A DNA stretch of 64,000 nucleotides from Candidatus Binatia bacterium (GTDB lineage Bacteria; Desulfobacterota; Binatia; UBA9968; JAJDTQ01), in contig JAJDXX010000235.1 in assembly GCA_022823055.1 (NCBI GenBank), positions 1,308 through 65,307 on the forward strand, read 5' to 3'. The notes below the pieces were generated by a model. It had not been told where the DNA came from, searched no databases, and saw only the letters and a program-made list of their open reading frames with translations. Shown piece by piece: positions 24,742 through 57,293 of the stretch. The translations under genes and the position numbers were made by a program. Numbering within the stretch: position 1 is the stretch's first letter; every line of letters starts with the position of its first letter.

Positions 24742-25782
24742 ATGCAACGCGAACACAAGGAGATCATCTCCGCGGAGGACCGCACCACCTGGGCCGTCAC
24801 CGGTCCGGCGATCCTGACCCCGCGGGAGCGCGGGTCGGACCAAGCGGCCGCCAGCATGGTGCGCACCCTGTTCGACCGCCCGCGCTGGCTCGAACCCTGC
24901 CACCTCTACGACGAAAAGGGCTCGCTCCTGTTCGAGGACATCTGCGAGCTGCCGGAGTACTATCCGACCCGCACCGAAGCCGCGATCCTCGAACGCGAGG
25001 CCGGCGCGCTCATGAGCCTGGCGCCGGTGGAGTGCATCGTGGAGCTGGGCGCCGGCTTCTCCAAGAAGACCGTCCATATCCTGAAGGCGCTCACCAACGC
25101 GCGCGGCCGCGGCACCTTCGCCCCGGTGGACGTGAGCAACACCGCGCTCATGGCGTCCAAGCGCATGGCCGAGGAGCTGTTCCCGGAGTTGGCCTTCACC
25201 GGAATCGAGGCGCGCTTCGAGGACGCCATCACCAGCATCACCCGTGAGATCCCCAAGCTCGTGGTGTTCCTGGGCAGCACCATCGGCAACTTCACCCCCA
25301 CGGACATGCTGCACTTCTTCAGCCACCTCACCGAAAACATGGGGCCTGAAGATTATCTCCTGCTGGGGGTGGACCGGATCAAGGACCCGGCCATCATCGA
25401 GCCCGCCTACGACGACTCCCGCGGCACCACCGCCGCCTTCATCCTCAACGGATTCCACAACGTCAACCGCGTCACCGGCGCCAACTTCCGGTTGGAAAAG
25501 ATCGCCTTCCGGAGCCGCTACAACCACAAGCGCGCCCAAGTGGAGATGTGCGGCATCGCACGGGAAACCCACAAGGTGGAGTTTCCGCGCCAGTCCGCGT
25601 CGTTCGTCTGGGAGAAGGACGAAGCGATCCTGATGGAGACCAGCCGCAAGTTCGACCCGGAGGACCTGCAGGTGCAGCTCCGCTGCTTCGGGCTCGAAAC
25701 CCTGGGCCACTGGACCGACCCGGAACAATGGTTCTCGTTGCTCCTGTTCCGGCGCAACGCGCCCTCCGCAGAGTCGCCATGA
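24742..25782 (+). CDS. egtD: L-histidine N-alpha-methyltransferase (hercynine synthase, EgtD family)
   Basis: 346 aa. ...LYDEKGSLLFEDICELPEYYPTRTEAAIL..., ...VELGAGFSKKT..., ...VFLGSTIGNF..., ...ILNGFHNVNR... match the EgtD/DUF2260 methyltransferase family. Confidence 0.85.
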   Translation: MQREHKEIISAEDRTTWAVTGPAILTPRERGSDQAAASMVRTLFDRPRWLEPCHLYDEKGSLLFEDICELPEYYPTRTEAAILEREAGALMSLAPVECIVELGAGFSKKTVHILKALTNARGRGTFAPVDVSNTALMASKRMAEELFPELAFTGIEARFEDAITSITREIPKLVVFLGSTIGNFTPTDMLHFFSHLTENMGPEDYLLLGVDRIKDPAIIEPAYDDSRGTTAAFILNGFHNVNRVTGANFRLEKIAFRSRYNHKRAQVEMCGIARETHKVEFPRQSASFVWEKDEAILMETSRKFDPEDLQVQLRCFGLETLGHWTDPEQWFSLLLFRRNAPSAESP

Positions 25783-33651: not shown

Positions 33652-35223
33652 TCAATTCAGGATCCGGCGCGCCAGTTCCCGGGCTTCGTCGCGGGTGTCG
33701 ACGATCCGCTCGGCGGCTACGTGCTGGAGCACGTCGAAGGCGTAGAACACTTCACGTACCTTCTGCCGGATTCCCGCGAATACGATCTCGGTTCCGGACT
33801 GTCTCGCGCGGCCGATGAGGAGGGCCATGAGGTGCGCCGCGCTGTCGTCCATGTGCGTCAGGTTCGACAGGTCGAAGATCACGAGCTCGTGTTCCCTGAT
33901 GTCGTCTCCGATCATGCGCACGAGCTTCCTGGACGATGCGACCGTGAAAGCGCCGCGGAACTCCAGCAACCCGGCGCGTGCCCTGAAGGGATCGCCTTCG
34001 GTCTCCTTCCCGAAGAAGACGCTGTCGAGCAGAGGGACCGAGATCACGCTATCCAGCTCGAGCTGCTCCAGGCGGTCCGTGTTGATGACACTGGCCGCGA
34101 TCACGCCGAAGATGACGGCGATGAGCGGATCCACGAAGCACGCCAACCCCATGGTGATGAGCATGACGACAACGAAGTCGGTCCGGATCGTGAAGATCCT
34201 GCGCAGGAACCGCCATTCGATCAGGCCCATTCCGACACGGAGAATGATGGCGGAGAGCGCGGCAATGGGAACCCATGAGACATAGGGGCCGAAGAATGCC
34301 AAGGCGGCCGCCAGAAGAAGCGCCGTGATGACCCCGGCCATGACCGTGCGGCCGCCGAAGCGGATGACCGTCAGCGTGTTGAGATTGCCGGAGCCGGGCA
34401 TCGTGCCGACGAAACCGGCGGTGATGTTGGCGACCCCGAGGGAAACCAGTTGCCGGTTTGAATTATGCTGGCCGCCGGTGAAGGTATCGGCCGTAATGGC
34501 GAGCAGGAGGGTGTAGGCGGTACTGATCAGGGCCAACACGATGGCCGAATGGAGCGCACTGCCCAGGGAGCCGGCGGACGGCATCGATATGACGGGCACG
34601 GGCAGCCCCGTCGGCAATTCGCCGAGCAGCGCGGCTCCCGGGAGGAAGAGGGAGAGAAGGATACCGGACCCGACGCCGGCCAGCGGGCCGGGAAAGTACT
34701 TTTCGATCTTCCTCGGCCAGAGCAGCATCACCGCGAGGGAAACGCCGACGATGGCGGCGTCGTCCATGCCGAGAGGGACTATCTTGGCGACCTGCGTCCA
34801 CAGGATACGCACTCCTATGCCGGACAGGAATCCGGCCATCACGATATGCGGCAAGTAGGAGGCGAAGCGTCCGATCCCGAAGAGGCCCAACAGGACCTGC
34901 ATGACGCCGGCCAGGACGGCGATGAGGGCGAGTTCGCCCAGGTCCCCGCCGTTGTCGGCGAGGATGGTGGCGACAATGACGGCTATGGCGACGCTCGGAC
35001 CGCAGACCAGTATCCTCGCACCACCGAACACCGCGGCCACGAGACCGACGATGATGAAGCAGTGAACGCCCGCGACCGGGCCCATGCCGGACACGACACC
35101 CAGGGCCATGGTGACCGGCAGGGCAGCAGCGAAACCGATCATGCCGGCCTTTGAATCGGCCCAGAGCTTCGTCCCGCTATAGGGCTCGCGGGCTTCCGAT
35201 CGCAGGGTTTCGAGGACGCCCAT
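33652..35223 (-). CDS. SulP-family anion transporter with C-terminal STAS domain
   Basis: 523 aa and multi-TM. ...VANITAGFVGTMPGSGNLNTLTVIRFGGRT... STAS tail ...VIFDLSNLTHMDDSAAHLMALL... Confidence 0.92.
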   Translation of the reverse strand: MGVLETLRSEAREPYSGTKLWADSKAGMIGFAAALPVTMALGVVSGMGPVAGVHCFIIVGLVAAVFGGARILVCGPSVAIAVIVATILADNGGDLGELALIAVLAGVMQVLLGLFGIGRFASYLPHIVMAGFLSGIGVRILWTQVAKIVPLGMDDAAIVGVSLAVMLLWPRKIEKYFPGPLAGVGSGILLSLFLPGAALLGELPTGLPVPVISMPSAGSLGSALHSAIVLALISTAYTLLLAITADTFTGGQHNSNRQLVSLGVANITAGFVGTMPGSGNLNTLTVIRFGGRTVMAGVITALLLAAALAFFGPYVSWVPIAALSAIILRVGMGLIEWRFLRRIFTIRTDFVVVMLITMGLACFVDPLIAVIFGVIAASVINTDRLEQLELDSVISVPLLDSVFFGKETEGDPFRARAGLLEFRGAFTVASSRKLVRMIGDDIREHELVIFDLSNLTHMDDSAAHLMALLIGRARQSGTEIVFAGIRQKVREVFYAFDVLQHVAAERIVDTRDEARELARRILN

Positions 35224-35224
35224 T

Positions 35225-35542
35225 CTATTGCATCAACCCATTGTCCCGCAGGGAACTCCATGACCAGGGCGTCGAACACGGGTTGCGCTCCAGGAAGATG
35301 TCCAGCAGGTATTTTCCCAGCCGGGTGCTCTCCAAACCCGGCGCCACCAGCTCCTTGATGTGCTTCTCGTGATACGTTGTCACGTCGTCCGTGTAACCCT
35401 CGATGCGGTCGCCGGTGCGCCCTCCCCCGCCGCTGCTTCCACCCACCAGGATCACGGCCCGGAACCTCTCCGGATGGTCCAGCCCCAGCAGCGCGGTTGG
35501 GTCGTTCCAACCACGAAAACAGCCGCACTGCAAACAAACCAT
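35225..35542 (-). pseudogene. Alpha/beta hydrolase remnant (decayed duplicate of 31403-32185 with two internal deletions)
   Basis: ...LLGLDHPERFRAVILVGGSSGGGGRTGDRIEGYTDDVTTYHEKHIKELVAPGLESTRLGKYLLDIFLERNP... is about 85% identical to the middle of the intact copy. The N-terminal (nucleophile) and C-terminal thirds are missing. Confidence 0.75.
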
Positions 35543-38389: not shown

Positions 38390-38515
38390 GTCATTCCCGC
38401 ACCCCGCCGTCATTCCCGCGAAAGCGGGAATCCAGGAGTGCAGAGGGCCGGGCGGCGTCCCCGCCTCACCCCGCCTGGATTCCCGCTTTCGCGGGAATGA
38501 CGGAAGGTGGGGCGG
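38390..38515. repeat. Nested-palindrome intergenic repeat, copy A (arms CCGTCATTCCCGCGAAAGCGGGAATCCAGG / reverse complement)
   Basis: Left arm 38407-38436 and right arm 38474-38503, a perfect 30-bp inverted repeat with a 37-bp spacer. Each arm contains its own TTCCCGC-GAAA-GCGGGAA hairpin. An extra GTCATTCCCGC half-site lies at 38390. Gives the SFPRKRES/IPAFAGMT pseudo-peptides in the track. Confidence 0.7.
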
Positions 38516-41673: not shown

Positions 41674-43063
41674 CGCGCCTCGAATCGGGTTTGGCGCCGG
41701 GTCCCGGTCCAGCGCCTGGTCCGGGTTTGGCTCCGGGCCGGCCGGCCCATGCTCCCGGTTTCGCTCCGGGTTTTCCTCCCCCAGGCCGCCCGCCCGGCCC
41801 GCGCCCGCCGCCCAGCAGGACCTTGGCGCCGTCCCGCAGCACTTCGTTGCCCAGCGTCACCACCTGCTGGCCGGGCTTGAGAGCCCCGTTGGAGATCTCC
41901 AGGAACGCCCGCCAGCCGCGCCCCGTGCTGACCTTCACCGCCTTCGCCTGACCGTCGGACACGACGAAAACCATCTCGTCCGGGCCGCGGCGCACCACCG
42001 CGTCCTTGGGCACCAGCACGCTCGGCTCGCCGCTCGAGACGACCACCGCGATCCGCGCCAGCATCCCGGCCTTGAGCCGCCCTTGTGCGTTGGAAAGCCG
42101 GATCTTCACCGGGAAGCTGCGGCTGCGCGTATCCGCCTGGGGAACGATGTGCGCCACCTCCCCGGAAAAGGCCTCTCCGGGAAACGCGTCCAGGGCCACC
42201 GTGGCGGACTGGCCGGGGCGCAGCAGCGCGATCTTCCGCTCCCCTACCGGCCCGGCGGCAAAGACCGGATCCAGGTCCACCAGGTCCGCCACCGGCTCGC
42301 CCGCGTTCACCCAGTCGCCCACATCCACGTGCTTCCTGACGATGAAACCCGAGATGGGGGCGAGCAGCGTGCTCTTCTCGATCTCGTAGGACACCGCGTC
42401 CATGCGCGCGCGGGCCTCGTCGTGCTCGGCCTCGGCCATGGCGATGTCCTCGGCCCTTGCGCCCGAGCGGGTGAGCTTCAAGGCGGCGCGGGCGCTGCCA
42501 TACTTCTCCCGCGCGGCCAGGTAGTCGCTCTCGGCCTTCTGCAACTCCGCCAGGCTCACGAGCTGATCGTCATAGAGCTGCTTGGCCCGTTCGAAGTCGC
42601 GGCGAGCGCGTTCCAGCAGCGCCTCCTGTTCCTTGGCCGCGGCGAGCCGCTGCTCCACTTCCTCGGAGCGGGAACCCTCCCGCACCTTCTCCCATTGCTT
42701 CTTCGCCCGCGCCACCGCGGCCGCGCGTTCGCGCAGCGCGATCTCGCGCCGTCCGCGGTCCAGTTGCAGCAGGACGGTCCTGCCCGCGGTGACGGCGTCG
42801 CCTTCCCGGAAGCCGGCAGCCGACACCCGGCCCGCCACCACCGCGGCCACCGTGGTGGCGACGTTGGGCTCGATGGTGCCGATGAAGGAAACCTCCTGCG
42901 GGATCGCCTTCGACTGTACCGGCGCCGTCTTGACGGCTACCGGGCGCGGCCCCCAGCGCTGAGGCCACGCCTGATCTGCGACCAGCATGAATGCCGTCAG
43001 CAGGCAGGCGACCAGGAGCAACGGCCGGGTGGCGGATCGAGGATGGGGGAAATACGTTGACAT
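41660..43063 (-). CDS. Efflux RND transporter periplasmic adaptor subunit (MFP) with a Gly/Pro/Lys-rich C-terminal tail
   Basis: Inner start MSTYFPHPRSATRPLLLVACLL... (ATG 43063). Coiled-coil hairpin ...AAVARAKKQWEKVREGSRSEEVEQRLAAAKEQEALLERARRDFERAKQL... Tail ...GGGRGPGGRPGGGKPGAKPGAWAGRPGAKPGPGAGPGPGAKP overlaps the RND start by 14 nt. Confidence 0.9.
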   Translation of the reverse strand: MSTYFPHPRSATRPLLLVACLLTAFMLVADQAWPQRWGPRPVAVKTAPVQSKAIPQEVSFIGTIEPNVATTVAAVVAGRVSAAGFREGDAVTAGRTVLLQLDRGRREIALRERAAAVARAKKQWEKVREGSRSEEVEQRLAAAKEQEALLERARRDFERAKQLYDDQLVSLAELQKAESDYLAAREKYGSARAALKLTRSGARAEDIAMAEAEHDEARARMDAVSYEIEKSTLLAPISGFIVRKHVDVGDWVNAGEPVADLVDLDPVFAAGPVGERKIALLRPGQSATVALDAFPGEAFSGEVAHIVPQADTRSRSFPVKIRLSNAQGRLKAGMLARIAVVVSSGEPSVLVPKDAVVRRGPDEMVFVVSDGQAKAVKVSTGRGWRAFLEISNGALKPGQQVVTLGNEVLRDGAKVLLGGGRGPGGRPGGGKPGAKPGAWAGRPGAKPGPGAGPGPGAKPDSRRDGNR

Positions 43064-43428
43064 CTTGTTTCTGGTTCGGGCGGTCGGTTTGAAACAGGAC
43101 CCTAGTTTAGACGACTCGGGGTTCCCTTGCCATTCGGTGCGGACGACGCGGGCATGGCCGAGAATAGGGCTTTTTGAGGGACGGGGCAACTGCCTTCGGA
43201 GCATTGGGGACCCGCACGGACCCCCGTTCCACCAGCATCCCGACGCTCACAAACCCTGGACTTCCCGGCCCCGAACCAGTACGTTTCTCCTCGAAACGTA
43301 CCCCCGATCCCGCCCCGCTTGTGGTAACCCCGCACATGCGTTCGAGATGCTTTGGCCCCGTCTCGTTGGCCCCGCCTGTTTCGCGGGCGGTCGGGTAGCA
43401 ACGTCGGTGAGAGGTTCACCGGGACCGT

Positions 43429-43775
43429 ATGAGCAAGGTTGGAGAGCAGTTCGACGTGATCGTCGCCGGAGGCGGCAGCGCGGGAGTGGGCGCCGCGGTG
43501 GGCAGCGCGAGATGCGGCGCGCGGACGCTATTGACCGAACGCTACTACTGCCTCGGCGGGGCGTCGACCATGCGGAACGTCCTCACCTATTGCGGCCTGT
43601 ACACGCTGGACGAGGGGCTCGACGTCGAGCTCAAGTTCTTCCAGGCGGCCCAGCCCATCGCCGTGGCCATTGCCTCGGGTGACATCGACTTCGGCGTCAC
43701 CGCTCTCACCGGCGGCTTCTACAACCTCGCGGACAAGGGCGCGCTCAAGGTCATCGGCGGCGCCGGTACCCTATC
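43429..43775 (+). pseudogene. Chimeric remnant: N-terminal ~60 aa of an FAD-dependent oxidoreductase fused in frame to a ~50-aa fragment of an NMT1/SsuA-type ABC substrate-binding protein
   Basis: MSKVGEQFDVIVAGGGSAGVGAAVGSARCGARTLLTERYYCLGGASTMRNVLTYCGLYT (FAD GxGxxG fold) followed abruptly by ...VELKFFQAAQPIAVAIASGDIDFGVTALTGGFYNLADKGALKVIGG (SBP internal segment). The rest of track ORF 43429..43935 is out-of-frame permease DNA. Confidence 0.6.
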
Positions 43776-43802
43776 GGGGCGGCGGATTTCCAGCCCAGGC
43801 CC

Positions 43803-44457
43803 GTGGGGGTGGTGGGCCCGCTGGTGTTCGCGGCGTTCATCGGCCTGTGGGAGATCGCCTCCCGGGCGGGGTGGATCAGCCCGATCTTCATCCCGGCGCC
43901 CAGTCTGGCCATGGCCGCTCTGCTCGACCTGGTGAAGACCGGCCAGCTCTGGCTGCATCTTGCGGCTTCCCTTCAGCGGCTGGTCCTGGGCTGGACCCTG
44001 GGCACCGCCGCCGGACTGCTGGTGGGCTTCGCCGCCGGCCTGTTCTCCCTCGCCCGCGCGGGCATCGTCCCGTTCGTGGCCGCCATCTTCTTCGGCACGT
44101 TCTTCCCCACCGTCATCTCGGTCTACGGGCGGCGTCGACAACGTCGACCGCACCCTGATCCGCATGGGCCGGTCGTTCGACCTCACGTGGTCCTCCATCG
44201 TGCGCAAGATCATCCTGCCCGGCGCCATGCCGGCGATTCTTTCCGGCTTCCGCATATCCACGTCCATCGCCATCATCCTGCTGGTAGCGGCCGAGATGAT
44301 CGGCGCCGAGTTCGGCGTGGGCGCCTACATCCTGCTGGCCGGCAACCTCATGGCCACCGACCAGCTCATCGCCGGGGCCGCGCTGCTGTCTATCATGGGC
44401 CTGACCGTGAGCTGGCTCATCGGCAAGGCGGAGAAGAGCATATTGCGGTGGCGCTAG
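43803..44457 (+). pseudogene. ABC transporter permease (SsuC/TauC-like), with a frameshift near 44125 and an internal deletion
   Basis: Frame 1 reads ...LWEIASRAGWISPIFIPAPSLAMAALLDLVKTGQLWLHLAASLQRLVLGW...GIVPFVAAIFFGTFFPTVISVYG. Frame 2 continues GVDNVDRTLIRMGRSFDLTWSSIVRKIILPGAMPAILSGFRISTSIAIILLVAAEMIGAEFGVG... The EAA-loop region is shortened and no ATPase gene follows. Confidence 0.7.
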
Positions 44458-44615
44458 CGCAAGTCCCGGCGCCCGGCTTCGACCCCGCCCGTGACGCGGC
44501 CGGGGAGCCGCGTGCCCGCTTGACAGCCCACCGGCAACGGCCTACGATTCGGGCATTCCGGCACCGCAAGCCGTCCCGCCCTCGGGGGCAATTTTCGTTC
44601 GCGGAGGAGGCAGAC

Positions 44616-45740
44616 ATGGCGAAACAAGGCTTCAAGGCGATGGACTCCGACATGCACGTGTTCGAGCCCCACGACCTGTGGGACCGCTACATCGACCCGG
44701 AGTTCAAGGACCGCGCGCCCAAGGGCCTGCAGCGCGATTTCCGGGACCTCGGCGTCGAGGTCGAAGGGAAGATCCTCCCGATCCCGAGACGGCCGGAGAA
44801 CCCGGGTCTCAGGGACTACCGCCTGAGCACCCTGAAGGAGAAGTACTCCGACGTGGCCGCGCGCAACTTCGACGGAGTCAGCCAGGTCATGGCCATGGAC
44901 AAGGAAGGGCTTGACGTGGCGTTCCTTTTCCCCACCCGCGGCCTCTTCGTCCTCGGTATCGACGGCCTCGACCCGGAGCTGGCCGCGGCCATCTCCCGGG
45001 CCTACAACGACTGGCTCTACGACTTCGCCCAGACCGCCCCCGACCGCATGGTCTGCGTCGCCATGGTGCCGCCCCAGAACGTCGAGGCGGCGGTGGCCGA
45101 GACCAAGCGCACGGTGAACGAGAAGGGCTTCCGGGGCATCTTCATGCGTCCCAACCAGACCAACGGACTGTGCTGGAGCGATCCCTACTACGATCCCCTG
45201 TGGGAGGTATGCCAGAGCCTGAACGTGCCGGTGGGCTTCCACGAGGCCGGGCGCGTCTATCAGCCCCAGCCGGCCATCTCGCAGTTCATCCCGTCCTTCT
45301 CCATGTTCAACACCCTGAGCTTCCCGCTGGCCAACATGTTCGCGTGCGCGGACATGATCTACGGCGGCGTCATGGAGCGCTTCCCCAAGCTCCGCGTGGC
45401 CTTCCTGGAAGGCAACTGCTCCTGGCTCCCGTGGCTCCTGTACCGCATGGGGGACTACATGGAATCGGTGGGCAAGGCCGAGTACCCGGACCTGAAGCTC
45501 GAGCCGCTGGAGTACTTCCAGCGCCAGTGCTTCGGCGCCGTCGAATGCGACGAGATCACCGCCAGGAACATCCCGGACTTCGGCCTGGAGGACAACGTGG
45601 TGTTCTCCACCGACTATCCGCACCTGGACGTCAAGTATCCCCACTCGCTGGATACCTTCCTGGAGATGCCGTTCTCCGACGAGTCCAAGCGGAAGTACCT
45701 CTGGGACAACTGCGCCCGGCTCTACAACATGGGTCAGTAA
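44616..45740 (+). CDS. Amidohydrolase-2 family metal-dependent hydrolase/decarboxylase
   Basis: GGAGGAGG SD then ATG 44616; it is the inner part of track ORF 43803..45740. MAKQGFKAMDSDMHVFEP..., ...VVFSTDYPHLD... are typical of the ACMSD-like TIM-barrel family. Confidence 0.8.
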   Translation: MAKQGFKAMDSDMHVFEPHDLWDRYIDPEFKDRAPKGLQRDFRDLGVEVEGKILPIPRRPENPGLRDYRLSTLKEKYSDVAARNFDGVSQVMAMDKEGLDVAFLFPTRGLFVLGIDGLDPELAAAISRAYNDWLYDFAQTAPDRMVCVAMVPPQNVEAAVAETKRTVNEKGFRGIFMRPNQTNGLCWSDPYYDPLWEVCQSLNVPVGFHEAGRVYQPQPAISQFIPSFSMFNTLSFPLANMFACADMIYGGVMERFPKLRVAFLEGNCSWLPWLLYRMGDYMESVGKAEYPDLKLEPLEYFQRQCFGAVECDEITARNIPDFGLEDNVVFSTDYPHLDVKYPHSLDTFLEMPFSDESKRKYLWDNCARLYNMGQ

Positions 45741-45810
45741 CATCCCGGGTTCACCAACCACATTCGAGCGGCGGGGGATCGTTGAAGGCTTCTTCGGTCC
45801 CCCGTGGAGC

Positions 45811-46869
45811 ATGGCGCACCGGGCGGCGATGTTCGCGTTCGGCGCCGCGCGCGGCATGAACACCTACCTCTACGCGCCCAAGGACGACCCTTACCACCGC
45901 GAGCGCTGGCAACTGGCCTATCCCGAGCCGGAGTGGCGGGAGCTGTGCCGGCTCATCGAAACGGCCCAGTCCCACGGCATCGACTTCGTTTACGGCTTTC
46001 ACCCGGGCAAGGACCTGTGCTTCACCGCGGCGGAACCGGTGCGCATCCTGCTCGACAAGGCGGCGCGGCTTTACGACCGGGGCGTGCGCACCTTCGCCGT
46101 GCTGTTCGACGACATCCCGTCCCACCTGACGGACGCCGGCGACATCAAGAGGTTCGACGGCAGCCTGGCCAAGGCCGAATCCCTGTGGCTGGAGGCGGTG
46201 CTGGAGCGGCAGCCCGCGGACTGGGACGCGGAGTGGTGGTTCTGTCCCTCATACTACACCCCCGACCCGCTGCTGGCCCGGGTCTTCGGCGAGTTCGAGC
46301 CCGGGTTCCCCGAGACCGTGAGGCGCTACCTGCCGCCACAGGTAGCCTGCTTCTGGACCGGGCCCAAGGTGGTGCCGGAGAGCGTCACCCTGGACCACAT
46401 GGCGGAGATGGACGAGAGGATGGGGCACAGGCTGCTGTTCTGGGACAACTACCCGGTCAACGACCTCACCATGGCCGACGAGATGCACATCGGACCGCTG
46501 ACCGGCCGGGACCCGCGCCTGCCGGAGCGAGTGCACGCGCACCTGGCCAACCCGCTCTTGCAGGAGGAGCTGAGCTTCGTTCCCCTGGCCACCTGCTTCG
46601 ACTACGCGCGGGATCCATCGGGCTACGATCCGGAGACGAGCTGGGAGGCCGCGGTGACGGAGCGGTTCGGCGCGGCCAGCGTGGAGCACTGGCGGGCGCT
46701 CCGGCGATTCTGTGAGAAGGAAGCGCAGACCGGCGCGCCGGCGACGTTGCCGGAACCGGAGCGCGCCGCGCTGGAAGCCGCCAACGGCTACCTGCTGGCC
46801 CACCGTCGCGAAGGGTGGTGCCGGGAGTTCGAGCCGTGGCGGGAGAGACTGGAGCACGCGCTCCGGTAG
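45811..46869 (+). CDS. GH84 beta-N-acetylglucosaminidase (O-GlcNAcase/NagJ-like). The true N-terminus probably lies upstream (about 45742), where there is no canonical start codon
   Basis: ...GMNTYLYAPKDDPYHRERW... and the catalytic Asp pair ...FAVLFDDIP... The in-frame upstream codons read IPGSPTTFERRGIVEGFFGPPWS, the conserved first strand of the GH84 barrel, with no ATG/GTG/TTG. Confidence 0.8.
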   Translation: MAHRAAMFAFGAARGMNTYLYAPKDDPYHRERWQLAYPEPEWRELCRLIETAQSHGIDFVYGFHPGKDLCFTAAEPVRILLDKAARLYDRGVRTFAVLFDDIPSHLTDAGDIKRFDGSLAKAESLWLEAVLERQPADWDAEWWFCPSYYTPDPLLARVFGEFEPGFPETVRRYLPPQVACFWTGPKVVPESVTLDHMAEMDERMGHRLLFWDNYPVNDLTMADEMHIGPLTGRDPRLPERVHAHLANPLLQEELSFVPLATCFDYARDPSGYDPETSWEAAVTERFGAASVEHWRALRRFCEKEAQTGAPATLPEPERAALEAANGYLLAHRREGWCREFEPWRERLEHALR

Positions 46870-46932
46870 TGTCCTGTCCTGCGAAAGACCGGCAGATGAT
46901 CGCGTGAACTGACCGGACAGCACACCGAAATC

Positions 46933-48237
46933 ATGGAAGACAAGACCGTATCCACCCGTGAGATACTGGACACCCTGAACGAGGTGCGTTCCCGGACCCT
47001 GGGCTTGGTGGAAGATCTGTCGGGCGAGCAACTCACCGTGCCCATGCTGAACATCGTCAATCCCCCGCTCTGGGAGATCGGGCACGTGTCCTGGTTTCAC
47101 GAGCGGTGGGCGCTTCGGCATCTGCGCGGCCGCGACCCCATCATCTCCAACGGCGACGAGCTCTACGACTCCGCGGCGGTGCGCCACGACACCCGCTGGG
47201 TGCTGGCGCTGCCGCCCCTGGCGGAAACCCTCGCCTACAAGGAGCGCGTGCTGCGGCAGATCAGCGAGGAGTTGCCCGCCGAGCGGCTGAGCCCGGAGGA
47301 AACCTACTTCCACAAGCTGGTCATCTTCCACGAGGACATGCACGCGGAGGCCATGACCTACACGCGCCAGACCCTGGGGTATCCGCCGCCTCCGTTCATG
47401 GGCGAGCCCAGGGCCGTGTCCGGCGGCTCCTGCCCCGGCGACGTGGAGGTGCCGGGCGGCGAGTTCGTTCTCGGCGGCACTCCGGACCTTCCCTTCGTCT
47501 TCGACAACGAGAAGTGGGGCCACCCGATAACCGTGGTGCCCTTCCGCATCGCCCGCGCCCCGGTGACCAACCAGGAGTTCGCAGCGTTCGCCGACGACGG
47601 AGGGTACGGGGACCCGCGCTGGTGGAGCGAAGACGGCTGGAGTTGGCGGCAGGCCGAGGGCGCGACGTACCCCGTCTACTGGCGACGGGAGGCGCCGGGA
47701 CGTTGGCAAGAGCGGATATTCAACCGGTGGGGGTCGCTCCAGGCGGAGTTGCCGGTGATCCACGTCAACTGGTACGAGGCCGAGGCGTACTGCCGGTGGG
47801 CCGGGCGGAGGCTGGCGACGGAGACGGAGTGGGAGATGGCGGCGGCCGTGGACCCGGCCGGCAAAAAGGAGCCGGGAGCAGCCAAGCGGGGCTATCCCTG
47901 GGGCGAAGCGCCGCCCGACCCGTCCTGCGGCAACCTCGACTGGGCCGCCGGAGGCCGGCTGCCGGTGGACGCGCTTTCGGCCGGCGACAGCGCCGCCGGC
48001 TGCCGGCAGATGATCGGCAACGTCTGGGAGTGGACGGCCGACGCCTTCCACCCCTATCCCGGCTTCGTCCGGGACCCCTACAAGGAATACTCCGAGCCCT
48101 GGTTCGGCGACCGCAAGGTGCTGCGCGGAGGCTGCTGGGCCACCCGCTCCCACCTGATCCGCAACACTTGGCGGAACTTCTTCACGCCGGACCGGCGCGA
48201 CGTGCTGGCGGGGTTCCGGACGTGCGCGCGGGACTGA
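46933..48237 (+). CDS. EgtB/SenA-family non-heme iron enzyme (DinB-like N-domain + FGE-sulfatase/SUMF1 C-domain): hercynine C-S or C-Se bond-forming sulfoxide/selenoxide synthase
   Basis: 434 aa. ...NPPLWEIGHVSWFHERW... (DinB His ligands), ...FHEDMHAE..., C-terminal ...VNWYEAEAYCRWAGRRLATETEWE...GNVWEWT...RGGCWAT... (FGE-sulfatase fold). Confidence 0.8.
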   Translation: MEDKTVSTREILDTLNEVRSRTLGLVEDLSGEQLTVPMLNIVNPPLWEIGHVSWFHERWALRHLRGRDPIISNGDELYDSAAVRHDTRWVLALPPLAETLAYKERVLRQISEELPAERLSPEETYFHKLVIFHEDMHAEAMTYTRQTLGYPPPPFMGEPRAVSGGSCPGDVEVPGGEFVLGGTPDLPFVFDNEKWGHPITVVPFRIARAPVTNQEFAAFADDGGYGDPRWWSEDGWSWRQAEGATYPVYWRREAPGRWQERIFNRWGSLQAELPVIHVNWYEAEAYCRWAGRRLATETEWEMAAAVDPAGKKEPGAAKRGYPWGEAPPDPSCGNLDWAAGGRLPVDALSAGDSAAGCRQMIGNVWEWTADAFHPYPGFVRDPYKEYSEPWFGDRKVLRGGCWATRSHLIRNTWRNFFTPDRRDVLAGFRTCARD

Positions 48238-48295
48238 CCGGGGACTTAGTTTCGGCGAAGGCCCCGCCGGGTTCCAGCCGAACACGTCCGTTGGA

Positions 48296-49285
48296 TTGGA
48301 AAACGACTTGGCACGGAAGAACACCCAAACGACCCGAATCGCCCTCGTAACGCCGGCCGGCCCCACCCGCCGCACGGGCAACCGTATCTCGGGCAACAGG
48401 TGGGCGCGAATCCTGCGGGCGTCGGGACACCGGGTCATCCCCCTGGATCGCTACGAGCGCGAGCGTTGCGACGTGTTGATCGCGCTCCACGCCCGGCGCA
48501 GTCATGACTCCGTCCGGCGGTTCCGCGATCTGAACCCCGGCAAGCCGATAGTGGTGGTCCTGACCGGAACCGACCTGTACCGCGACATCCATGAGGACGA
48601 AGATTCACGGGAGTCCCTCCGGCTGGCCGACCGCCTGGTAGTGCTGCAACGCAAGGGGCTTGACGAGCTCGAGCCGGCGCTGCACGAGAAGACTTGGGTC
48701 ATCTACCAATCCGCGCCGGCCAGCCCCGGGCAGCCCGGCAATCCCGTAAAACAGTTCACCGTGGCGGTGGTGGGCCACATGCGCCCCGAGAAGGACCCGT
48801 TCCGGACAGCCATGGCAGTACGCTCGTTGCCGCGCGCGTCGCGGATCCGCGTCGTTCACATCGGCGCCGCGTTCGGCGACAACTTTCTGCGCCGCGCCGA
48901 GCAGGAGGCCGAGCGCAACCCGCGCTACCGCTGGGTCGGCGAGTGGCCTCACTGGAAGACGCGCCGGTTCATGGCCCGCAGCCACATCCTGTCCATCACC
49001 TCACGCATGGAAGGCAGTTCCAACGTCCTGTGCGAGGCGCTGGCCTCGGGGGTGCCCGTGGCAGCCTCCCGGATCTCGGGATTGATGGGAACCCTGGGCG
49101 ACGACTATCCGGGCTACTACGAGCTCGGCGACACCGCGGGGCTCAAACGCCTGCTGCTCCGCGCCGAGACCGACCCGGCGTTCTACGAGAGCTTGGCACG
49201 GCACTGCGCCGAGGCGGCACCGCTGGTGAACCCGGAGCGAGAGATCTGGACCTGGCAGGGGTTGGTCCGTGAAGTGACGCGTTGA
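48296..49285 (+). CDS. GT-B (GT4-like) glycosyltransferase, candidate selenosugar/thiosugar synthase (SenB-like)
   Basis: 329 aa, TTG start. ...RIALVTPAGPTRRTGNRISGNRWARILRASGHRV... EX7E-type motif ...SRMEGSSNVLCEALASGVPV... Lies immediately downstream of the EgtB/SenA-family gene, as in described sen clusters. The SenB assignment is inference. Confidence 0.6.
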   Translation: MENDLARKNTQTTRIALVTPAGPTRRTGNRISGNRWARILRASGHRVIPLDRYERERCDVLIALHARRSHDSVRRFRDLNPGKPIVVVLTGTDLYRDIHEDEDSRESLRLADRLVVLQRKGLDELEPALHEKTWVIYQSAPASPGQPGNPVKQFTVAVVGHMRPEKDPFRTAMAVRSLPRASRIRVVHIGAAFGDNFLRRAEQEAERNPRYRWVGEWPHWKTRRFMARSHILSITSRMEGSSNVLCEALASGVPVAASRISGLMGTLGDDYPGYYELGDTAGLKRLLLRAETDPAFYESLARHCAEAAPLVNPEREIWTWQGLVREVTR

Positions 49286-49295
49286 CCACGCGTCG

Positions 49296-49445
49296 AACCC
49301 CTCCGTCATTTGTCCTGTTTCCCGGTCATTCCTAGTTCCCCGTCATTCCCGCGAAAGCGGGAATCCATGGGTCCTGGCGGGGCGCTACAGCGGTGTTCCC
49401 CCGCTCCACCCCGCCTGGATTCCCGCTTTCGCGGGAATGACGGGA
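49296..49445. repeat. Nested-palindrome intergenic repeat, copy B
   Basis: GTCATT half-sites at 49305, 49325 and 49342. Left arm ~49339-49367 (ends CCATGG instead of CCAGG). Right arm 49414-49443 is identical to copies A and C and is preceded by the same CACCCCG. Confidence 0.7.
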
Positions 49446-49623: not shown

Positions 49624-50778
49624 TTACGACAGCACCTCGATGAGTTTCTCCGCCACCGTGTCCAGCTCGGCGTGGGTGATGACCAGGGGCGGCAACAACC
49701 TTACCACGGTCGCTCCCGCGGGCAGCGCCAGGACGCCTTTTTCCATGAGGCGCACGAGGTGGGGCTGGGACTTTTCCTTGAGCTCGATGCCGATCATGAG
49801 ACCGAGTTGGCGGATCTCTCTCACCTTCGGCAGGTCCGCGGCCTGAAGCCGTTCCAGCAGGTAGGCGCCCTTCTCCGTTGCGGCCGCGGCCAGCCCTTCC
49901 TCCTCCATGGCGTCGATGGCGGCCAGCGACGCGGCGCACGCGAGCGGGTTGCCGCCGAAGGTGCTGCCGTGGCGGCCGACGGGGACCTCGAGCTTGTCGG
50001 AGCAGAGCACCGCGCCCATGGGGATGCCGCCGGCCATAGCCTTGGCGAGACACAGGATGTCGGGCTCCAAGCCGAAGTGCTCGCAGGCGAACATCTTGCC
50101 GGTGCGGCAGAAGCCGGTCTGGACCTCGTCGATGATGAGGAGGACGCCCCGCTCCCGGCAGAGCTCGCCCACCTGCTCGAAGAACTCGGCCTTGCCGAGG
50201 TTCACGCCGCCTTCGCCCTGGACGATCTCCAACATCACGGCGGCGGTGTTGTCGTTCACCTTCTCTTCCAGCTTGGCGAAGTTGTTGAAGGGGGTGTACT
50301 GGAAGCCTTCCACGATGGGCACGAAGGGCTCGCGGTATTCCTTGGTGAAGGTGGCGCTCAGCGCCCCCATGGTGCGGCCGTGGAAGCCGCGCATGGCGCA
50401 CACGAACTCCTGCTTGCCGGTGGCGAAGCGGGCGAACTTGATGGCCGCCTCGATGGTCTCGGTGCCCGAGTTGCACAGGAAGGCGCGGTTCAGGTTGCCG
50501 GGGGCGATGCCGGCCAGTCGCTCCAGCAGGCGCGCCTTGACGTCGTTGTAGAAGACCCCGGAGCAGCTCAGGAGCCTCTGGGCCTGCTCGGACACCGCCT
50601 GCACCACCTTGGGGTGGCAGTGTCCCAGGTTGGCAACGCCGTGGCCGGCGACGCAGTCGATGTACTCCCGGCCCTCGTGGTCCCAGACCCTGGCGCCCTC
50701 GCCGCGCACCAGCACGATGTCGCGCTTGGGATAGACGTCGAACTCGTGCCGTTGCTGCAACTCCTTGAAATCAGTCAC
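49624..50778 (-). CDS. lysJ: Class-III aminotransferase of the LysW pathway (LysJ/ArgD-type acetylornithine/[LysW]-aminoadipate semialdehyde transaminase)
   Basis: 384 aa. ...VRGEGARVWDHEGREYIDCVAGHGVANLGHCHP..., ...LLIIDEVQTGFCRTGKMFA... Last gene of the lysW operon. Confidence 0.85.
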   Translation of the reverse strand: MTDFKELQQRHEFDVYPKRDIVLVRGEGARVWDHEGREYIDCVAGHGVANLGHCHPKVVQAVSEQAQRLLSCSGVFYNDVKARLLERLAGIAPGNLNRAFLCNSGTETIEAAIKFARFATGKQEFVCAMRGFHGRTMGALSATFTKEYREPFVPIVEGFQYTPFNNFAKLEEKVNDNTAAVMLEIVQGEGGVNLGKAEFFEQVGELCRERGVLLIIDEVQTGFCRTGKMFACEHFGLEPDILCLAKAMAGGIPMGAVLCSDKLEVPVGRHGSTFGGNPLACAASLAAIDAMEEEGLAAAATEKGAYLLERLQAADLPKVREIRQLGLMIGIELKEKSQPHLVRLMEKGVLALPAGATVVRLLPPLVITHAELDTVAEKLIEVLS

Positions 50779-51566
50779 TGGATCACCGTTCCTTTCCCGG
50801 CCAGGGCGTCCCGCACTGGATGTTCCGTGCGGCCGTCGCTCATGATGACCTTTTCCGCGCCTTCCTCGAACAGCTTCCGGAGCGCCAGCATCTTGCGCTT
50901 CATGCGCCCCTCCACCTGGGCTTCCCGCTGCTCCAGCTCGGGCGCGCGGATCTCGGGCACCACCGTGCTCTCGTCGTCCTTGTCGGCGAGAAAGCCCGGC
51001 GCCTCGATGAGCTGCAGCACCACCTCGGCGTGGAAGGCGGCCTGGAGCACGTTGATGATGTCGTCGTTCTCCGAGTTGATGGCGGTGTGGCGTTCGTCGA
51101 TGATGGGAATCGACAGCACCGGCGCGTAGCCGCCGTCGAGCAGCAATTGGAACAGCTCCTTGTTGGCGCTCCGGGGCTTGCCCGAGAAGTCCCGCACGAT
51201 AAGGGTCTTGCCGTTCTTCCGCACCCGGATGCCCTTGTTGCGCTGTCCCTGGATGGCCCGCCCGTCGATGCCGGAGAGGCCCACGGCGTTCACGCCGTTC
51301 TGCTGCAGCAGCTCGACGATGCGCTTGTTCTGCACGCCCGCGTAGCCCATCAGGATGGCGTCCAGCGCCGCCTTGTCGGACAGCACGCTGGTGTAGCCCG
51401 ACACCGACGTCACCACCTGGGTCGGGTTGCCGAGCTTGGCCGCGATGGCGTCCCGCACCGCGTTGGCGCCGTGCACCACGATGAAAGGGGCGGACACCTC
51501 GGCCAGGTCTTCGGCGATGCCGGGCAGGTTGATGTCGCTGCCGCCGCCGATCTTCACGAGTATCAT
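50775..51566 (-). CDS. lysZ: [LysW]-aminoadipate/[LysW]-glutamate kinase (amino-acid kinase family, LysZ/ArgB-like)
   Basis: Inner start MILVKIGGGSDINL...FIVVHGANAV... The ATG overlaps the stop of the upstream Ntn gene and the stop overlaps the lysJ ATG. Confidence 0.85.
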   Translation of the reverse strand: MILVKIGGGSDINLPGIAEDLAEVSAPFIVVHGANAVRDAIAAKLGNPTQVVTSVSGYTSVLSDKAALDAILMGYAGVQNKRIVELLQQNGVNAVGLSGIDGRAIQGQRNKGIRVRKNGKTLIVRDFSGKPRSANKELFQLLLDGGYAPVLSIPIIDERHTAINSENDDIINVLQAAFHAEVVLQLIEAPGFLADKDDESTVVPEIRAPELEQREAQVEGRMKRKMLALRKLFEEGAEKVIMSDGRTEHPVRDALAGKGTVIQ

Positions 51567-52201
51567 CGAAGTTGCTCCACCGTGTCGTTGGGGATGATGC
51601 GCCACGATCCGTTTTTGGGCACGGTCTCCGAGCTCACCACGAAGCCGCCCTCGTCGTCCCGGGCGCGAAGCCTGAAATACTCCGGTTGCTCATTGTAGAC
51701 CGATCCCACGTAGACGTTCTCCCGGTCGGCGATGACCATGTTCATGGCGCGCACGTAACGGGTTCTGCGGACGATGACGTCCATCCCTTTCCGCATGGCC
51801 GCCGCTATGTCGCCCTTGTCGAAGCGCTTGACGAAGTTGAACACCTTCTCCGCGCCGATGCGGCCCTCCGCCGCGATCCGGACGCCCCGCAACTCGCCGT
51901 TGAACGCGAACACGTAACGGTCGTCCGAGAACGGCATGTTGTTCTCCACCACGATGTTCTCGTCCCGGAACGCGCTGCGAGCGTGGCCCACCAGCAGCGT
52001 GGTAGCGCCGAACTGGTCCAGGTCGTCCTCCCAGATGGGCTTGATGTTGTGGTAGACCCTCCACTCCCCGTCGACGATGTAGGCGCAGCCCCAGCCGTGC
52101 CCCTGGTACTCGGGGCTGTTGCGGGCGATACCGGCGAGATCCGCCAGGCGTTCGCCGATGTCGAACGACTCACGGTTCTTGACGCACATGAGGCGGCACA
52201 T
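51563..52201 (-). CDS. Class-II (Cys-Ntn) glutamine amidotransferase-like hydrolase, YafJ/EgtC type
   Basis: 212 aa beginning MCRLM (Cys2 nucleophile after Met removal). ...GHGWGCAY..., ...LVGHARSAFRDENIVVENNMPF..., ...FAFNGELRG... Embedded between lysY and lysZ. Confidence 0.8.
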   Translation of the reverse strand: MCRLMCVKNRESFDIGERLADLAGIARNSPEYQGHGWGCAYIVDGEWRVYHNIKPIWEDDLDQFGATTLLVGHARSAFRDENIVVENNMPFSDDRYVFAFNGELRGVRIAAEGRIGAEKVFNFVKRFDKGDIAAAMRKGMDVIVRRTRYVRAMNMVIADRENVYVGSVYNEQPEYFRLRARDDEGGFVVSSETVPKNGSWRIIPNDTVEQLR

Positions 52202-52213
52202 GGCGCTTGCCTG

Positions 52214-53260
52214 CTAGGGGTGGAGCCCCGGGAACTCGAGGCCCTCCGTTTCCTCGAAGCCGTTCATGAGGTTGAAGGCCTGGACCGCCTGGCCGGCGGC
52301 GCCCTTCATCAGGTTGTCGAGGGCGCTCAGCACCACCAGGCGGTCCGAGCCCTTCTCCTTCTGGAAGCCGATGTCGCAGTAGTTGGTGCCGCTCAAGAGC
52401 TTGGGCTCCGGGTAGCGGTAGATGCCGTCGGCCTCCTTGACAATGCGGATGAAAGGCTCCTTGCCGTAGGCCTCGCGGTAGATCTTCCACACGTCCTTCT
52501 CTTCCAGCGGCTCGCGGAGGAAGAGGTGCGCCGTCGCCAGCACACCCCGCACCATCTCGATGGAGGTGGCGGAGAAGTAGAACCGGATCGGCTCGCCGAA
52601 ACCCAGCTCCTGGTAGATCTCGGCGCTGTGGCGGTGCAGGGTGGGCATGAACGAACGCACCGCGCCGCTCCGTTCCGGGTGGTGGGACGCGTCGCTGGCG
52701 GCGTTGCCGCCCTCGCTGGAGCCCACCTTGACCTCCACCACCGTGCGTTCGCGGTCCACCAACCCCTTCCTGAAGAACGGGTAGACGCCGAGGATCGTGG
52801 CGGTGGCGTTGCAGCCGGCGCCGGTGACGAAGTTCGCTCCCCGAATCTCGTCGCGGTGCAGCTCCGGGACCCCGTAGACGAACTCCTTCATGAGCTCCGG
52901 GCGCTGGTGCGGCTTGCCGTACCAGCGCTGGTACTCGTCGGCGCCGTTCAGCCTGAAGTCGGCGCTCAGGTCCACCAGCTTCGGGGCCAGCTCCCGGAAC
53001 GAATCGATACGCTCCTGGGCCTGACCGTGGGGCAGGCAGAGGAACAGCAGGTCGCACGGGTTCAGCTCGTCCATCTTGCAGAAGCGAAGCTGCGTCCGCT
53101 TGCGCAGGTTGGGGTGGGCCTTGAACACGAACTTGCCGGCGAAGCGCTCCGAGGTGACCTCGCACACCTCCACCCGCGGGTGCCCGAGCAGCAGCCGCAG
53201 AAGCTCCCCCCCGGTGTAGCCGGACGCTCCGACGATGGAGACCTTCAGCTTGTCGGCCAC
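52214..53260 (-). CDS. lysY: [LysW]-aminoadipyl/glutamyl-phosphate reductase (ArgC/LysY family)
   Basis: 348 aa. MADKLKVSIVGASGYTGGELLRLL... Active-site region ...VTGAGCNATATIL... Confidence 0.88.
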   Translation of the reverse strand: MADKLKVSIVGASGYTGGELLRLLLGHPRVEVCEVTSERFAGKFVFKAHPNLRKRTQLRFCKMDELNPCDLLFLCLPHGQAQERIDSFRELAPKLVDLSADFRLNGADEYQRWYGKPHQRPELMKEFVYGVPELHRDEIRGANFVTGAGCNATATILGVYPFFRKGLVDRERTVVEVKVGSSEGGNAASDASHHPERSGAVRSFMPTLHRHSAEIYQELGFGEPIRFYFSATSIEMVRGVLATAHLFLREPLEEKDVWKIYREAYGKEPFIRIVKEADGIYRYPEPKLLSGTNYCDIGFQKEKGSDRLVVLSALDNLMKGAAGQAVQAFNLMNGFEETEGLEFPGLHP

Positions 53261-53314
53261 GACTGCCCCGTTTCCTTCCGGTCCGTCCCGCTCATCGATT
53301 CCCGCGCAGCCGAA

Positions 53315-54187
53315 TCAGGCTGCGCCCCTGCGTTCCTGCTCCTCACGGCCCACCTTGAGCACATGCTCGACGACGAGGCCGGGGATGTTCACCCCGGTGG
53401 TGTCGATGCTGTTCCGGAACTCCATGGTGTAGTTCACTTCGTTGACAAGCAGTCCGTCCGGGGTCTCGAAGAGATCCACGGCGACGATGCCGCCTCCCAC
53501 CGCGCGGCACGCGCCAACCGAGAGGTCCCGCAGCTCGTCCGTCACCGGGCAGTTCTCGGCGCGCCCGCCCCGGGCCGTGTTGGTGATCCAGTGGTCGCTG
53601 TAGCGGTAGATGGCGGCCACGCAGTCGTCGCCGATGACGAAGCTCCGGATGTCGCGCCCGGTCTTCTCGACGTACTGCTGGATGTAGAAGATGGAGTGGT
53701 GGTAGCTGCCCAGGATCGCCTTGTGCTCCAGGATGGTCTCCGCGGCGTCCCGGTCGTTCACCTTGGCCAGCAGCCGGCCCCAGGAACCCACCGCGGGTTT
53801 CAGCACCACGGGATAGCCCATCTCCTCGATGGCCTCCAGGGTGGATTCCTCGGTGAAGGCGATGCGCACCTCGGGCTGGGGCACGTCGTGCTCCTGGAGG
53901 TGCACCGAAGTGAGGATCTTGTCGCCGCACACGGTGGCCACCGACGACGCGTTCACGCAGCGCACGCCGGCGCTCTCGAACAGCCGCAGGCCGTGCAGCG
54001 CCCGGGAGTGGTTGATGCACCGCTCCAGCAGCACGTCCAGGTCGAACTCGTCCCGGCCCAGGTTGAACGAGAGCTTCCGGTCGTCGATCATTTGGAGCTC
54101 CACGCCGGGATGCTTCCGGAACTCCTTGATGAGGAGCTTCTCCTCGGGCCGGACCAGTGAATGCAGCAAACCGATCTTCAAGCTCAT
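53315..54187 (-). CDS. lysX: ATP-grasp ligase LysX (RimK family; attaches the substrate to the LysW C-terminus)
   Basis: 290 aa. [23 protein letters not shown]..., ...[17 protein letters not shown]..., ...[26 protein letters not shown]... Confidence 0.88.
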
Positions 54188-56261: not shown

Positions 56262-57293
56262 TTAGAGTCCGTAGTAGCGCTTCGGGTTGTCGCACAGGAT
56301 CTTCTTGCGCACATCGGGGTTGATGTCCTCCCGTGCGAAGAAGTCCGGCAGATCGTGGAAGAAGTCCGCGCGCGCCCGCTCGTGGGGATAGTCCGAGGCC
56401 CACAGCACCTGGTCCCCGCCGAGCTGCTCCAGCACGTACGGCAGGCTCCGTTCGTCCACCTCGCAGGTGAAGAAGATGTTGCCGCCGCGGATGATGTCGC
56501 TGGGGCGCTGCTTCACCGCCAGCGCGTGGCCGCGCCGCTCCCAGTTCTCGTCCAGCGCGTCCATCATGAACGGCACCCAGCCGGTGCCGCACTCCAGGTA
56601 GGCCACGCGCAGGTTGGGGAAGCGGTCGTACACGCCGGCGTTGATCATGCTCATCATCTGCACCATCTGCGGCATGGCGTGCTCCAGCGGCCTCGCCTCG
56701 GCCAGACTCTCGAAGATGTCCAGGCCAAGGCCCGCCACCGGACCGCCGTGGACCGCCAGGGCGCAGTCGAGCCGCTCGGCTTCCGCGTAGATCGGGTCGA
56801 ACTGGCGGCCGCCCAGCCCCACCAGCGGCGCCATCACCGACGGGATCACCCCGGCCACCATGCCCAGCTCCTCCACGCACCGGCGCAGCTCCGCCACCGC
56901 GGCGTCGATGTCCTGGACCGGCAGCAGCGCCACCCCCTTGAGCCGGTCCGACTGGCGGCCGAAACAGTCGTACAGCCAGTCGTTGTAGGCCTGGGCCACG
57001 GCCACCGCCCAGCCCTTGTTGCGGATCTGGCCGTGGAACAGCGCGTTGCTGGGATAGAGGATGGTCTGCTCGATCTTCGACTCGTCCAGGAAGCTCAGCC
57101 AGTTGGCCGCGTCCGGCACCTCGGCCTTGTGGCGGGACGACATGCCGCGCATCCAGCCGTCGGTAAGCGGGAAGAGGTAGTACTCGCGGGTCCAGTCCTT
57201 CTCGTTCCACGGAGCCGGCAGGTAGTTGCGCAGGTCCTTGTCCTGGTCCACCACGTGGCCGTCGGCGTCGATGATAGCGTGTTCACATTCCAT
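56262..57293 (-). CDS. Amidohydrolase-2 family protein (second paralogue in the window)
   Basis: 343 aa. [16 protein letters not shown]..., ...[12 protein letters not shown]... Confidence 0.8.

Follow-up and report, generated by a model that had tools for sequence, protein, structure and literature searches.

In a 64,000-nt stretch of DNA from Candidatus Binatia bacterium (contig JAJDXX010000235.1; the whole stretch is called the window below) we found a gene for a glycoside hydrolase of family GH84 followed on the same strand by senA and senB, two genes of selenoneine biosynthesis. GH84-senA-senB without senC is a conserved variant of the sen operon that recurs in many uncultured bacteria. 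According to the sen and ovs papers, SenB makes the selenosugar SeGlcNAc (seleno-N-acetylglucosamine) from UDP-GlcNAc and selenophosphate, and a selenoxide is formed when SenA couples SeGlcNAc to hercynine. This selenoxide either eliminates spontaneously, with 2-acetamidoglucal leaving, or is converted through thiol reduction into a stable selenoether, hercynyl-SeGlcNAc, a shunt product that was observed in vitro (Kayrouz preprint). Taken as a whole, we read the locus with moderate confidence as a senC-less sen operon whose selD lies elsewhere and whose GH84 enzyme would be dedicated to the pathway, acting on Se-GlcNAc linkages. A preliminary description of this DNA had listed four co-directional genes within 44616–49285, the first of them an amidohydrolase gene, and this layout was confirmed: each gene was identified by Pfam or NCBIfam, and the intergenic gaps are 63–70 nt. 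The window matches an independent public assembly of 6.5 kb (L001) with 100% identity across 42844–49365, so the gene arrangement is not an assembly artefact of the window.

To see how far this arrangement extends, the GH84 family alignment was scanned against one genome per species, which gave two groups of 40 loci: a sen-linked GH84 subfamily at least 50% identical (L002–L041), and generic GH84 proteins at most 42% identical. The metagenome-assembled genomes of the first group are labelled Binatia, Deltaproteobacteria, Syntrophobacterales, Thermodesulfobacteriota, Verrucomicrobia and Burkholderiales. Downstream of GH84 on the same strand, 27 of the 40 subfamily loci carry a SenA homologue (at least 49% identical) and 24 carry SenB; most of the subfamily loci without sen genes end at contig ends. 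Among the 40 generic loci, neither SenA nor SenB was found in any. These counts are not phylogenetically independent. The loci here and in the canonical set described below are the nearest neighbours of two queries, so that intermediate clades may exist. The SenA and SenB proteins of five distant GH84-linked loci exceed the NCBIfam cut-offs, and in several relatives only ~7–10 nt separate GH84 from SenA, as judged from the ends of the tblastn matches. A neighbour-joining tree places the GH84 subfamily on a long branch, as a tight clade. Four subfamily loci that carry no sen genes (L019, L031, L035 and L040) showed no alternative conserved partner downstream of GH84. The adjacency to which the preliminary description had drawn attention is thus conserved under several phylum-level labels.

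The gene downstream of GH84, described earlier as encoding an EgtB/SenA-family enzyme, sided clearly with SenA when both models were scored: the protein reached 508.1 bits against the NCBIfam SenA model NF041186 (cut-off 420) and 340.6 bits against the EgtB model TIGR03440, under the cut-off of 360. It is composed of an N-terminal DinB_2 domain (PF12867) and a C-terminal FGE-sulfatase domain (PF03781), and no EgtB paralogue was found anywhere in the window. Its best solved relative is OvsA (333 bits), with SenA of Variovorax paradoxus at 252 bits. The composite active-site motif has been defined as xNEH--HRHxHYYN(F/Y)(F/Y)R for SenA and as ...HYMQAYR for OvsA (ovoselenol paper, PMC11030361). 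With the motif positions picked by alignment to OvsA, and not from the authors' own alignment, the window protein reads N,E,H / H,R / H,H / Y,Y / N,F,F / R, which fits the SenA definition and not that of OvsA; the residues that discriminate are Y,M,Q,A,Y in wild-type OvsA. An identity as OvsA was considered and rejected: OvsA is the top match in the PDB, yet the discriminating residues Y / N-F-F / R are of the SenA type. Because Y, N and F replace M401, Q430 and A431 of OvsA, the enzyme is predicted to accept hercynine and to act at C2. By these measures it is a genuine SenA, and it is predicted to catalyse C2-Se coupling of hercynine and SeGlcNAc.

The glycosyltransferase encoded next likewise passed the SenB model, as the preliminary description had proposed, with 385 bits against TIGR04348 (cut-off 300), and gave 197 bits to the V. 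paradoxus SenB structures; translation begins at TTG 48296 or with the codon at 48308. In SenB, the selenophosphate pocket is made up of N20, H58, R61, T83, T85 and R155, K158 initiates Se-P cleavage, and the sugar elements are N20/T23/E231 and an EGGAHV motif (PMC10891094). Alignment to 8jjn/8fbx showed that N20, H58, R61, T83, T85, D86, R155 and K158 are all kept in the window protein. The sugar site retains N20 and E231 and has S in place of T23, and its motif is EGSSNV (H235 to N) rather than EGGAHV. EGSSNV occurs in 24 of 26 GH84-linked SenB proteins, and EGGAHV in 73 of 77 canonical loci. As EGGAHV has been described for beta-proteobacterial SenBs only, EGSSNV marks a subclade and does not exclude these proteins from the family. 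The window protein is a genuine SenB by model score and pocket residues.

We then asked where selenophosphate and hercynine would come from. The SelD query was the E. coli protein, verified against PDB 3u0o (767 bits, full length). It gave no tblastn match in the window even at E<=10, in agreement with the earlier statement that the 64 kb carry no SelD-like gene, and none of the 40 GH84-subfamily loci gave one within ~10 kb; as a positive control, it found a 44%-identical match in an unrelated locus (L066). No tRNA-Sec or selenium-linked RNA was found in the window, where the tRNA and Rfam scans gave tRNA-Leu only. An unlinked selD is not unusual, since only 827 of 2,353 TIGR04348 genes have a complete trio, ~65% being without the full selD/egtB trio within 5 kb (Kayrouz et al.). 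The intact selenophosphate pocket of SenB leads us to expect selD elsewhere in the genome, and a selD outside the window is the probable source of selenophosphate. Hercynine would be supplied by the product of an unlinked egtD-like gene upstream, whose distance of 21 kb from the module had been given correctly. Its protein scored 281.4 bits against TIGR03438, just under the cut-off of 290.9, and is 52% identical to the products of egtD genes inside GH84-senAB neighbourhoods, one of which (in L029) passes TIGR03438 with 298.2 bits. The gene stands among housekeeping genes, flanked by genes for a lytic transglycosylase and a GlpC-like protein.

To place this locus among known sen clusters, we scanned metagenomes with a SenB alignment whose first sequence is V. 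paradoxus SenB and obtained a canonical set of 80 loci. Of these, 54 have an adjacent SelD, 5 are informative loci without SelD, and 21 end too early for a decision; none of the 80 contains GH84. The window module agrees with canonical senABC (V. paradoxus; Kayrouz et al. 2022) in the NCBIfam models, the SenA motif, the SenB pocket with K158, and in that an egtD gene is often nearby. It differs in that senC/selD stands beside senB there, whereas the window and its 40 relatives are without senC, and in that GH84, absent there, precedes senA here. Furthermore, canonical senA is mostly on the opposite strand, upstream of senB-senC, whereas GH84, senA and senB are co-directional in the window, and SenA and SenB are only ~35–47% identical between the canonical clade and the window. 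In the sampled tree, the SenA proteins of the canonical and GH84-linked sets are reciprocally monophyletic (35–45% identity between sets). In a neighbour-joining tree of SenB the GH84-linked proteins did not separate as a clean clade, owing to at least one aberrant open reading frame extraction. The ovs (ovoselenol) cluster, with OvsA/OvsM and SenB/SenC, shares the SeGlcNAc donor and the elimination of 2-acetamidoglucal; unlike it, the window SenA has Y/N/F where OvsA has M401/Q430/A431, and the window carries an egtD-like gene. No OvsM-like methyltransferase was found among the annotated genes beside the module. The sen and ovs papers examined make no mention of a glycosidase, and full-text literature searches brought up nothing that connects GH84 with selenoneine. 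The original discovery of sen clusters started from selD neighbourhoods (Kayrouz et al.), so a senC-less architecture would be missed.

The GH84 protein itself carries the NAGidase catalytic domain. Read from ATG 45811, it covers profile positions 15–293 of 295 of PF07555; its best solved match is the Thermobaculum O-GlcNAcase (OGA) 5diy (208 bits), and the alignment runs from strand beta-1 once the upstream in-frame codons are included. In GH84 enzymes the substrate's 2-acetamido group acts as nucleophile together with a DD pair (PMC10636738). The pair, FDDI in the window protein, aligns with WDDI of CpNagJ and is invariant in the family. The G of EGFFG, the K of YAPKDD, WDNYPVND and NPLLQ, which are GlcNAc-site residues, are invariant in 27 family members; residue roles partly follow the mechanism description in PMC10636738. 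The model for the multi-domain NagJ type, NF041654, gave 154.4 bits against a cut-off of 1000 and covered 161–427 of its 732 positions, and the protein is a GH84 catalytic domain, not a NagJ-type enzyme. The subfamily consists of single-domain proteins of ~380 residues with 60–89% mutual identity, and the N-terminus MxTFERRG, read by eye from the alignment, contains no signal peptide. We predict a cytoplasmic, GlcNAc-specific retaining hydrolase. It resembles the bacterial GH84 O-GlcNAcases (T. terrenum OGA 5diy, C. perfringens NagJ and B. thetaiotaomicron BT_4395) in its TIM-barrel NAGidase domain, DD pair and GlcNAc-binding residues; unlike them it is single-domain and belongs to a tight clade of its own, at most about 40% identical to other GH84 proteins, and its gene is linked to senA/senB instead of glycan-degradation or O-GlcNAc transferase (OGT) genes.

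Where translation of GH84 begins required closer inspection. The first canonical start, ATG 45811, is preceded in frame by codons for the conserved N-terminal strand TFERRGIVEGFFGPPWS. Where the homologous start lies, L003 and L004 have ATG, L005 has GTG, L002, L006 and L007 have ATA, and the window has CCA. Counted from the alignment, the 17 codons before ATG 45811 differ from those of relatives by ~8 synonymous changes and 1 non-synonymous change; since the changes are almost all synonymous, these codons are translated. The true start is accordingly placed upstream of ATG 45811 and is predicted to be non-canonical. A candidate is the in-frame ATC 45742, 1 nt past the stop codon of the amidohydrolase gene, a position that suggests a near-cognate start or termination-reinitiation. 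That the gene is a pseudogene or N-terminally truncated was also considered, and was rejected because the upstream codons are under purifying selection.

In the pathway that we propose, SenB would convert UDP-GlcNAc and selenophosphate, the latter made by a SelD encoded outside the window, into 1-seleno-beta-GlcNAc. SenA would join this selenosugar oxidatively to C2 of hercynine provided by the unlinked EgtD-like enzyme. When cellular thiols reduce the SenA selenoxide before elimination, the hercynyl-SeGlcNAc selenoether would arise, and GH84, as a GlcNAc-specific retaining hydrolase dedicated to selenoneine synthesis, would cut its beta-GlcNAc-Se bond to give selenoneine and GlcNAc. Through such cleavage the cell would regain scarce selenium from a dead-end product and reuse the sugar. 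Most likely the enzyme would either hydrolyse Se-GlcNAc linkages, as in the selenoether, or salvage the GlcNAc by-product. Mycobacterial EgtC/EgtE offer a parallel in concept, as additional enzymes that strip the carrier from an EgtB-type adduct and free the thione or selenone; those are an amidotransferase and a pyridoxal phosphate-dependent C-S lyase acting on a gamma-Glu-Cys carrier, whereas here the enzyme is a glycoside hydrolase and the carrier GlcNAc. Macauley 2005, as cited in PMC10636738 (ref 41), has GH84 OGA cleaving thioglycosides without general-acid catalysis.

Several observations weigh against a dedicated Se-glycosidase. The canonical pathway needs no glycosidase, since the selenoxide eliminates spontaneously. 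Human OGA does not hydrolyse alkyl S-GlcNAc on cysteine (PMC10636738), so cleavage by GH84 depends on the quality of the leaving group. A Burkholderiales subclade of the GH84 subfamily has no adjacent sen genes and sits among unrelated genes, and the window gene is without a canonical start codon ahead of the conserved first beta-strand. In one locus (L013, 10001–12338) the gene directly after GH84 encodes a bona fide SenB (407 bits), and SenA is missing within 10 kb; as this pair fits action on the selenosugar better than on the product of SenA, the arrangement suggests that GH84 is tied to the selenosugar itself. We regard as possible, though distinctly less probable than the broader reading given at the outset, that GH84 would be a fourth selenoneine enzyme, a Se-glycosidase releasing selenoneine from hercynyl-SeGlcNAc; in the radical version of this proposal the module would run on sulfur and make ergothioneine.

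Among the alternatives, the one that holds up best, though we consider it unlikely, is that GH84 would hydrate 2-acetamidoglucal to GlcNAc by way of an oxazoline, salvaging the sugar and removing a potential hexosaminidase inhibitor. Retaining glycosidases commonly hydrate glycals; GH84 catalysis runs through an oxazoline, which protonated 2-acetamidoglucal would form as well. The glucal is an observed elimination product of the OvsA/SenA-type reaction, and the DD pair for substrate-assisted catalysis is intact. Yet a trace flux of selenium would produce tiny amounts of glucal and weak selection for a dedicated salvage enzyme, the GH84 and SenB of L013 alone would yield no glucal, and our literature search found no report of glycal hydration by a hexosaminidase.

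A somewhat less probable role would be the hydrolysis of the free selenosugar, or of imported Se-GlcNAc conjugates, to selenide or a selenol and GlcNAc, in remobilisation, proofreading or an uptake branch that includes an AmpG-like permease. The SenA-less arrangement of L013 is the one this role would predict, and senB-senC cassettes without SenA exist (the ovs clusters and several SenB-SelD loci). AmpG proteins transport GlcNAc-containing muropeptides. An AmpG-family permease of the MFS type (TIGR00901, 252 bits, cut-off 350) is encoded downstream of and convergent with senB in ~15 of the loci L008–L041, which hints at transport of a GlcNAc-selenium conjugate. However, no AmpG-like gene was found in the window, SenA accompanies GH84 in most of the subfamily loci, and the enzyme would run a futile cycle when paired with SenB in one operon.

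That GH84 is a general cytoplasmic O-GlcNAcase or a cell-wall-recycling enzyme that merely neighbours the sen genes seems improbable to us. Its closest solved structure is indeed a bacterial OGA, the Burkholderiales subclade does stand alone, and the window gene has lost its canonical start codon. But adjacency and gene order are kept across phylum-level labels with very short gaps, distant GH84 proteins are never sen-linked, the unlinked Burkholderiales members are nested among sen-linked ones in the neighbour-joining tree, and no OGT-like gene recurs in the neighbourhoods.

Least probable of all is a sulfur pathway, in which thio-GlcNAc would give a hercynyl-S-GlcNAc sulfoxide and GH84 would break the S-glycosidic bond to release ergothioneine without SelD: SelD is missing from the window and the 40 related loci, GH84 and SelD are mutually exclusive in the sampled loci, and with a thiosugar SenA yields a stable sulfoxide that needs a further enzyme, but thioglucose is a very poor SenA substrate (Kayrouz preprint), the selenophosphate pocket of SenB and its Se-P-cleaving K158 are fully conserved, the chalcogen-sugar motif of SenA is identical to that of canonical SenA, and many TIGR04348 genes are without the full trio nearby anyway. 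We know of no biological thiophosphate donor. The thio-sugar route to ergothioneine that the preliminary description had allowed for thus finds no support.

The amidohydrolase gene at the head of the four-gene set is a lineage-specific neighbour outside the conserved module. Its presence had been described correctly and its membership in the module had not: it adjoins GH84 only in the six closest relatives (L002–L007, 91–99% identity), and a 49%-identical homologue lies ~9 kb from GH84 in L012. Among close relatives the amidohydrolase is better conserved than GH84, SenA or SenB. Of the solved structures PtmU3 comes closest to it, a di-iron monooxygenase that has an amidohydrolase fold, and a paralogue (28% identical) is encoded in the window at 56262–57293.

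The common Binatia-type gene order in related loci begins with an OpuC-type betaine-like ABC transporter, egtD, a fatty-acid-desaturase-like gene, LysE and a secreted FGE-like protein, and continues with GH84, sometimes a VOC protein and an alpha/beta hydrolase, then SenA, SenB and the convergent AmpG-family permease. A fused permease/substrate-binding OpuC-type transporter gene with its ATPase gene adjoins egtD upstream in L011, L012, L016, L029, L032, L035 and L036. This transporter presumably resembles ergothioneine/betaine uptake systems of the EgtUV type. The two-domain VOC/glyoxalase-like protein (~266 aa) and the alpha/beta hydrolase (~272 aa) are encoded between GH84 and senA in L008, L011, L022, L023, L030 and L032; the pair is absent from the window. 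The two might act as additional processing enzymes, or as a detoxification pair that depends on selenoneine. Of this wider neighbourhood, only the GH84-senA-senB core is left around the module in the window.

The features of the locus are collected in Table 1. The promoter match upstream of the amidohydrolase gene is weak (one site, with 0.7 expected in shuffles) and may be the start of a four-gene transcript. The palindromic element behind senB (CCGTCATTCCCGCGAAAGCGGGAATCC...) has a second copy in the window at 38407–38503, behind an RND pump gene, and multiple copies in both orientations in the related loci L002 and L003; it may be a terminator, or a REP-like (repetitive extragenic palindromic) or MITE-like (miniature inverted-repeat transposable) element.

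Table 1. Features of the sen module and its surroundings in the window
Feature	Position	Strand	Supporting match or remark
Sigma-70-like promoter match, TTGACA-17-TACGAT	44520-44548	+	10/12 matches, upstream of amidohydrolase
Amidohydro_2 protein	44616-45740	+	PF04909, 120.8 bits; no NCBIfam match
GH84 NAGidase, sen-linked subfamily	45742-46869 (first canonical ATG 45811)	+	PF07555, 246.2 bits
Predicted SenA, selenoneine synthase (non-haem-iron selenoxide synthase)	46933-48237	+	NF041186, 508.1 bits
Predicted SenB, selenosugar synthase (Se-glycosyltransferase), GT-B group-1	48296-49285	+	TIGR04348, 385 bits
Palindromic repeat, ~105 nt	49339-49444	.	arms 51 nt, 80% complementary; directly 3' of senB
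egtD-like histidine N-alpha-trimethylase	24763-25755	+	PF10017, 298.7 bits

Upstream of the module we found an RND efflux pair and the remains of decayed genes. The region 43443–44457 holds the remnant of an FAD-dependent oxidoreductase gene (the first ~53 residues only) and frameshifted ABC permease fragments; relative to L002, L003 and L007, two deletions in the window (~1.35 and 1.5 kb) eliminate most of the oxidoreductase gene and an ABC ATPase gene, and the L001 contig carries the same deleted state. A SulP-family anion transporter is encoded at 33652–35232 (minus strand), ~10 kb upstream of the module. A putative selenate transporter has been noted near some sen clusters (Kayrouz et al.). 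On the other side, at 49624–54187 on the minus strand and convergent with senB, stand LysW-type lysine/arginine biosynthesis genes (a LysJ/ArgD-like aminotransferase, an amino-acid kinase, a semialdehyde dehydrogenase and a LysX ATP-grasp protein); this set is housekeeping and has no relation to the sen module.

So far, selenoneine biosynthesis has been described as the work of SenA, SenB and SenC plus a spontaneous elimination step. A GH84 gene that accompanies senA and senB across many lineages from soil and groundwater suggests an additional enzymatic step, in release or salvage, and makes this a second architecture of sen clusters, one that selD-anchored genome mining misses by design. The gene is a candidate for improving heterologous selenoneine yield, and its product would be the first natural candidate for a selenoglycoside hydrolase. 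If it does act as a Se-glycosidase, these bacteria, and perhaps selenoneine producers in general wherever thiols reduce the selenoxide in vivo, would not rely on spontaneous elimination, and the GlcNAc-capped selenoether could be a real and possibly transported intermediate, handled in related loci by the AmpG-like permease.

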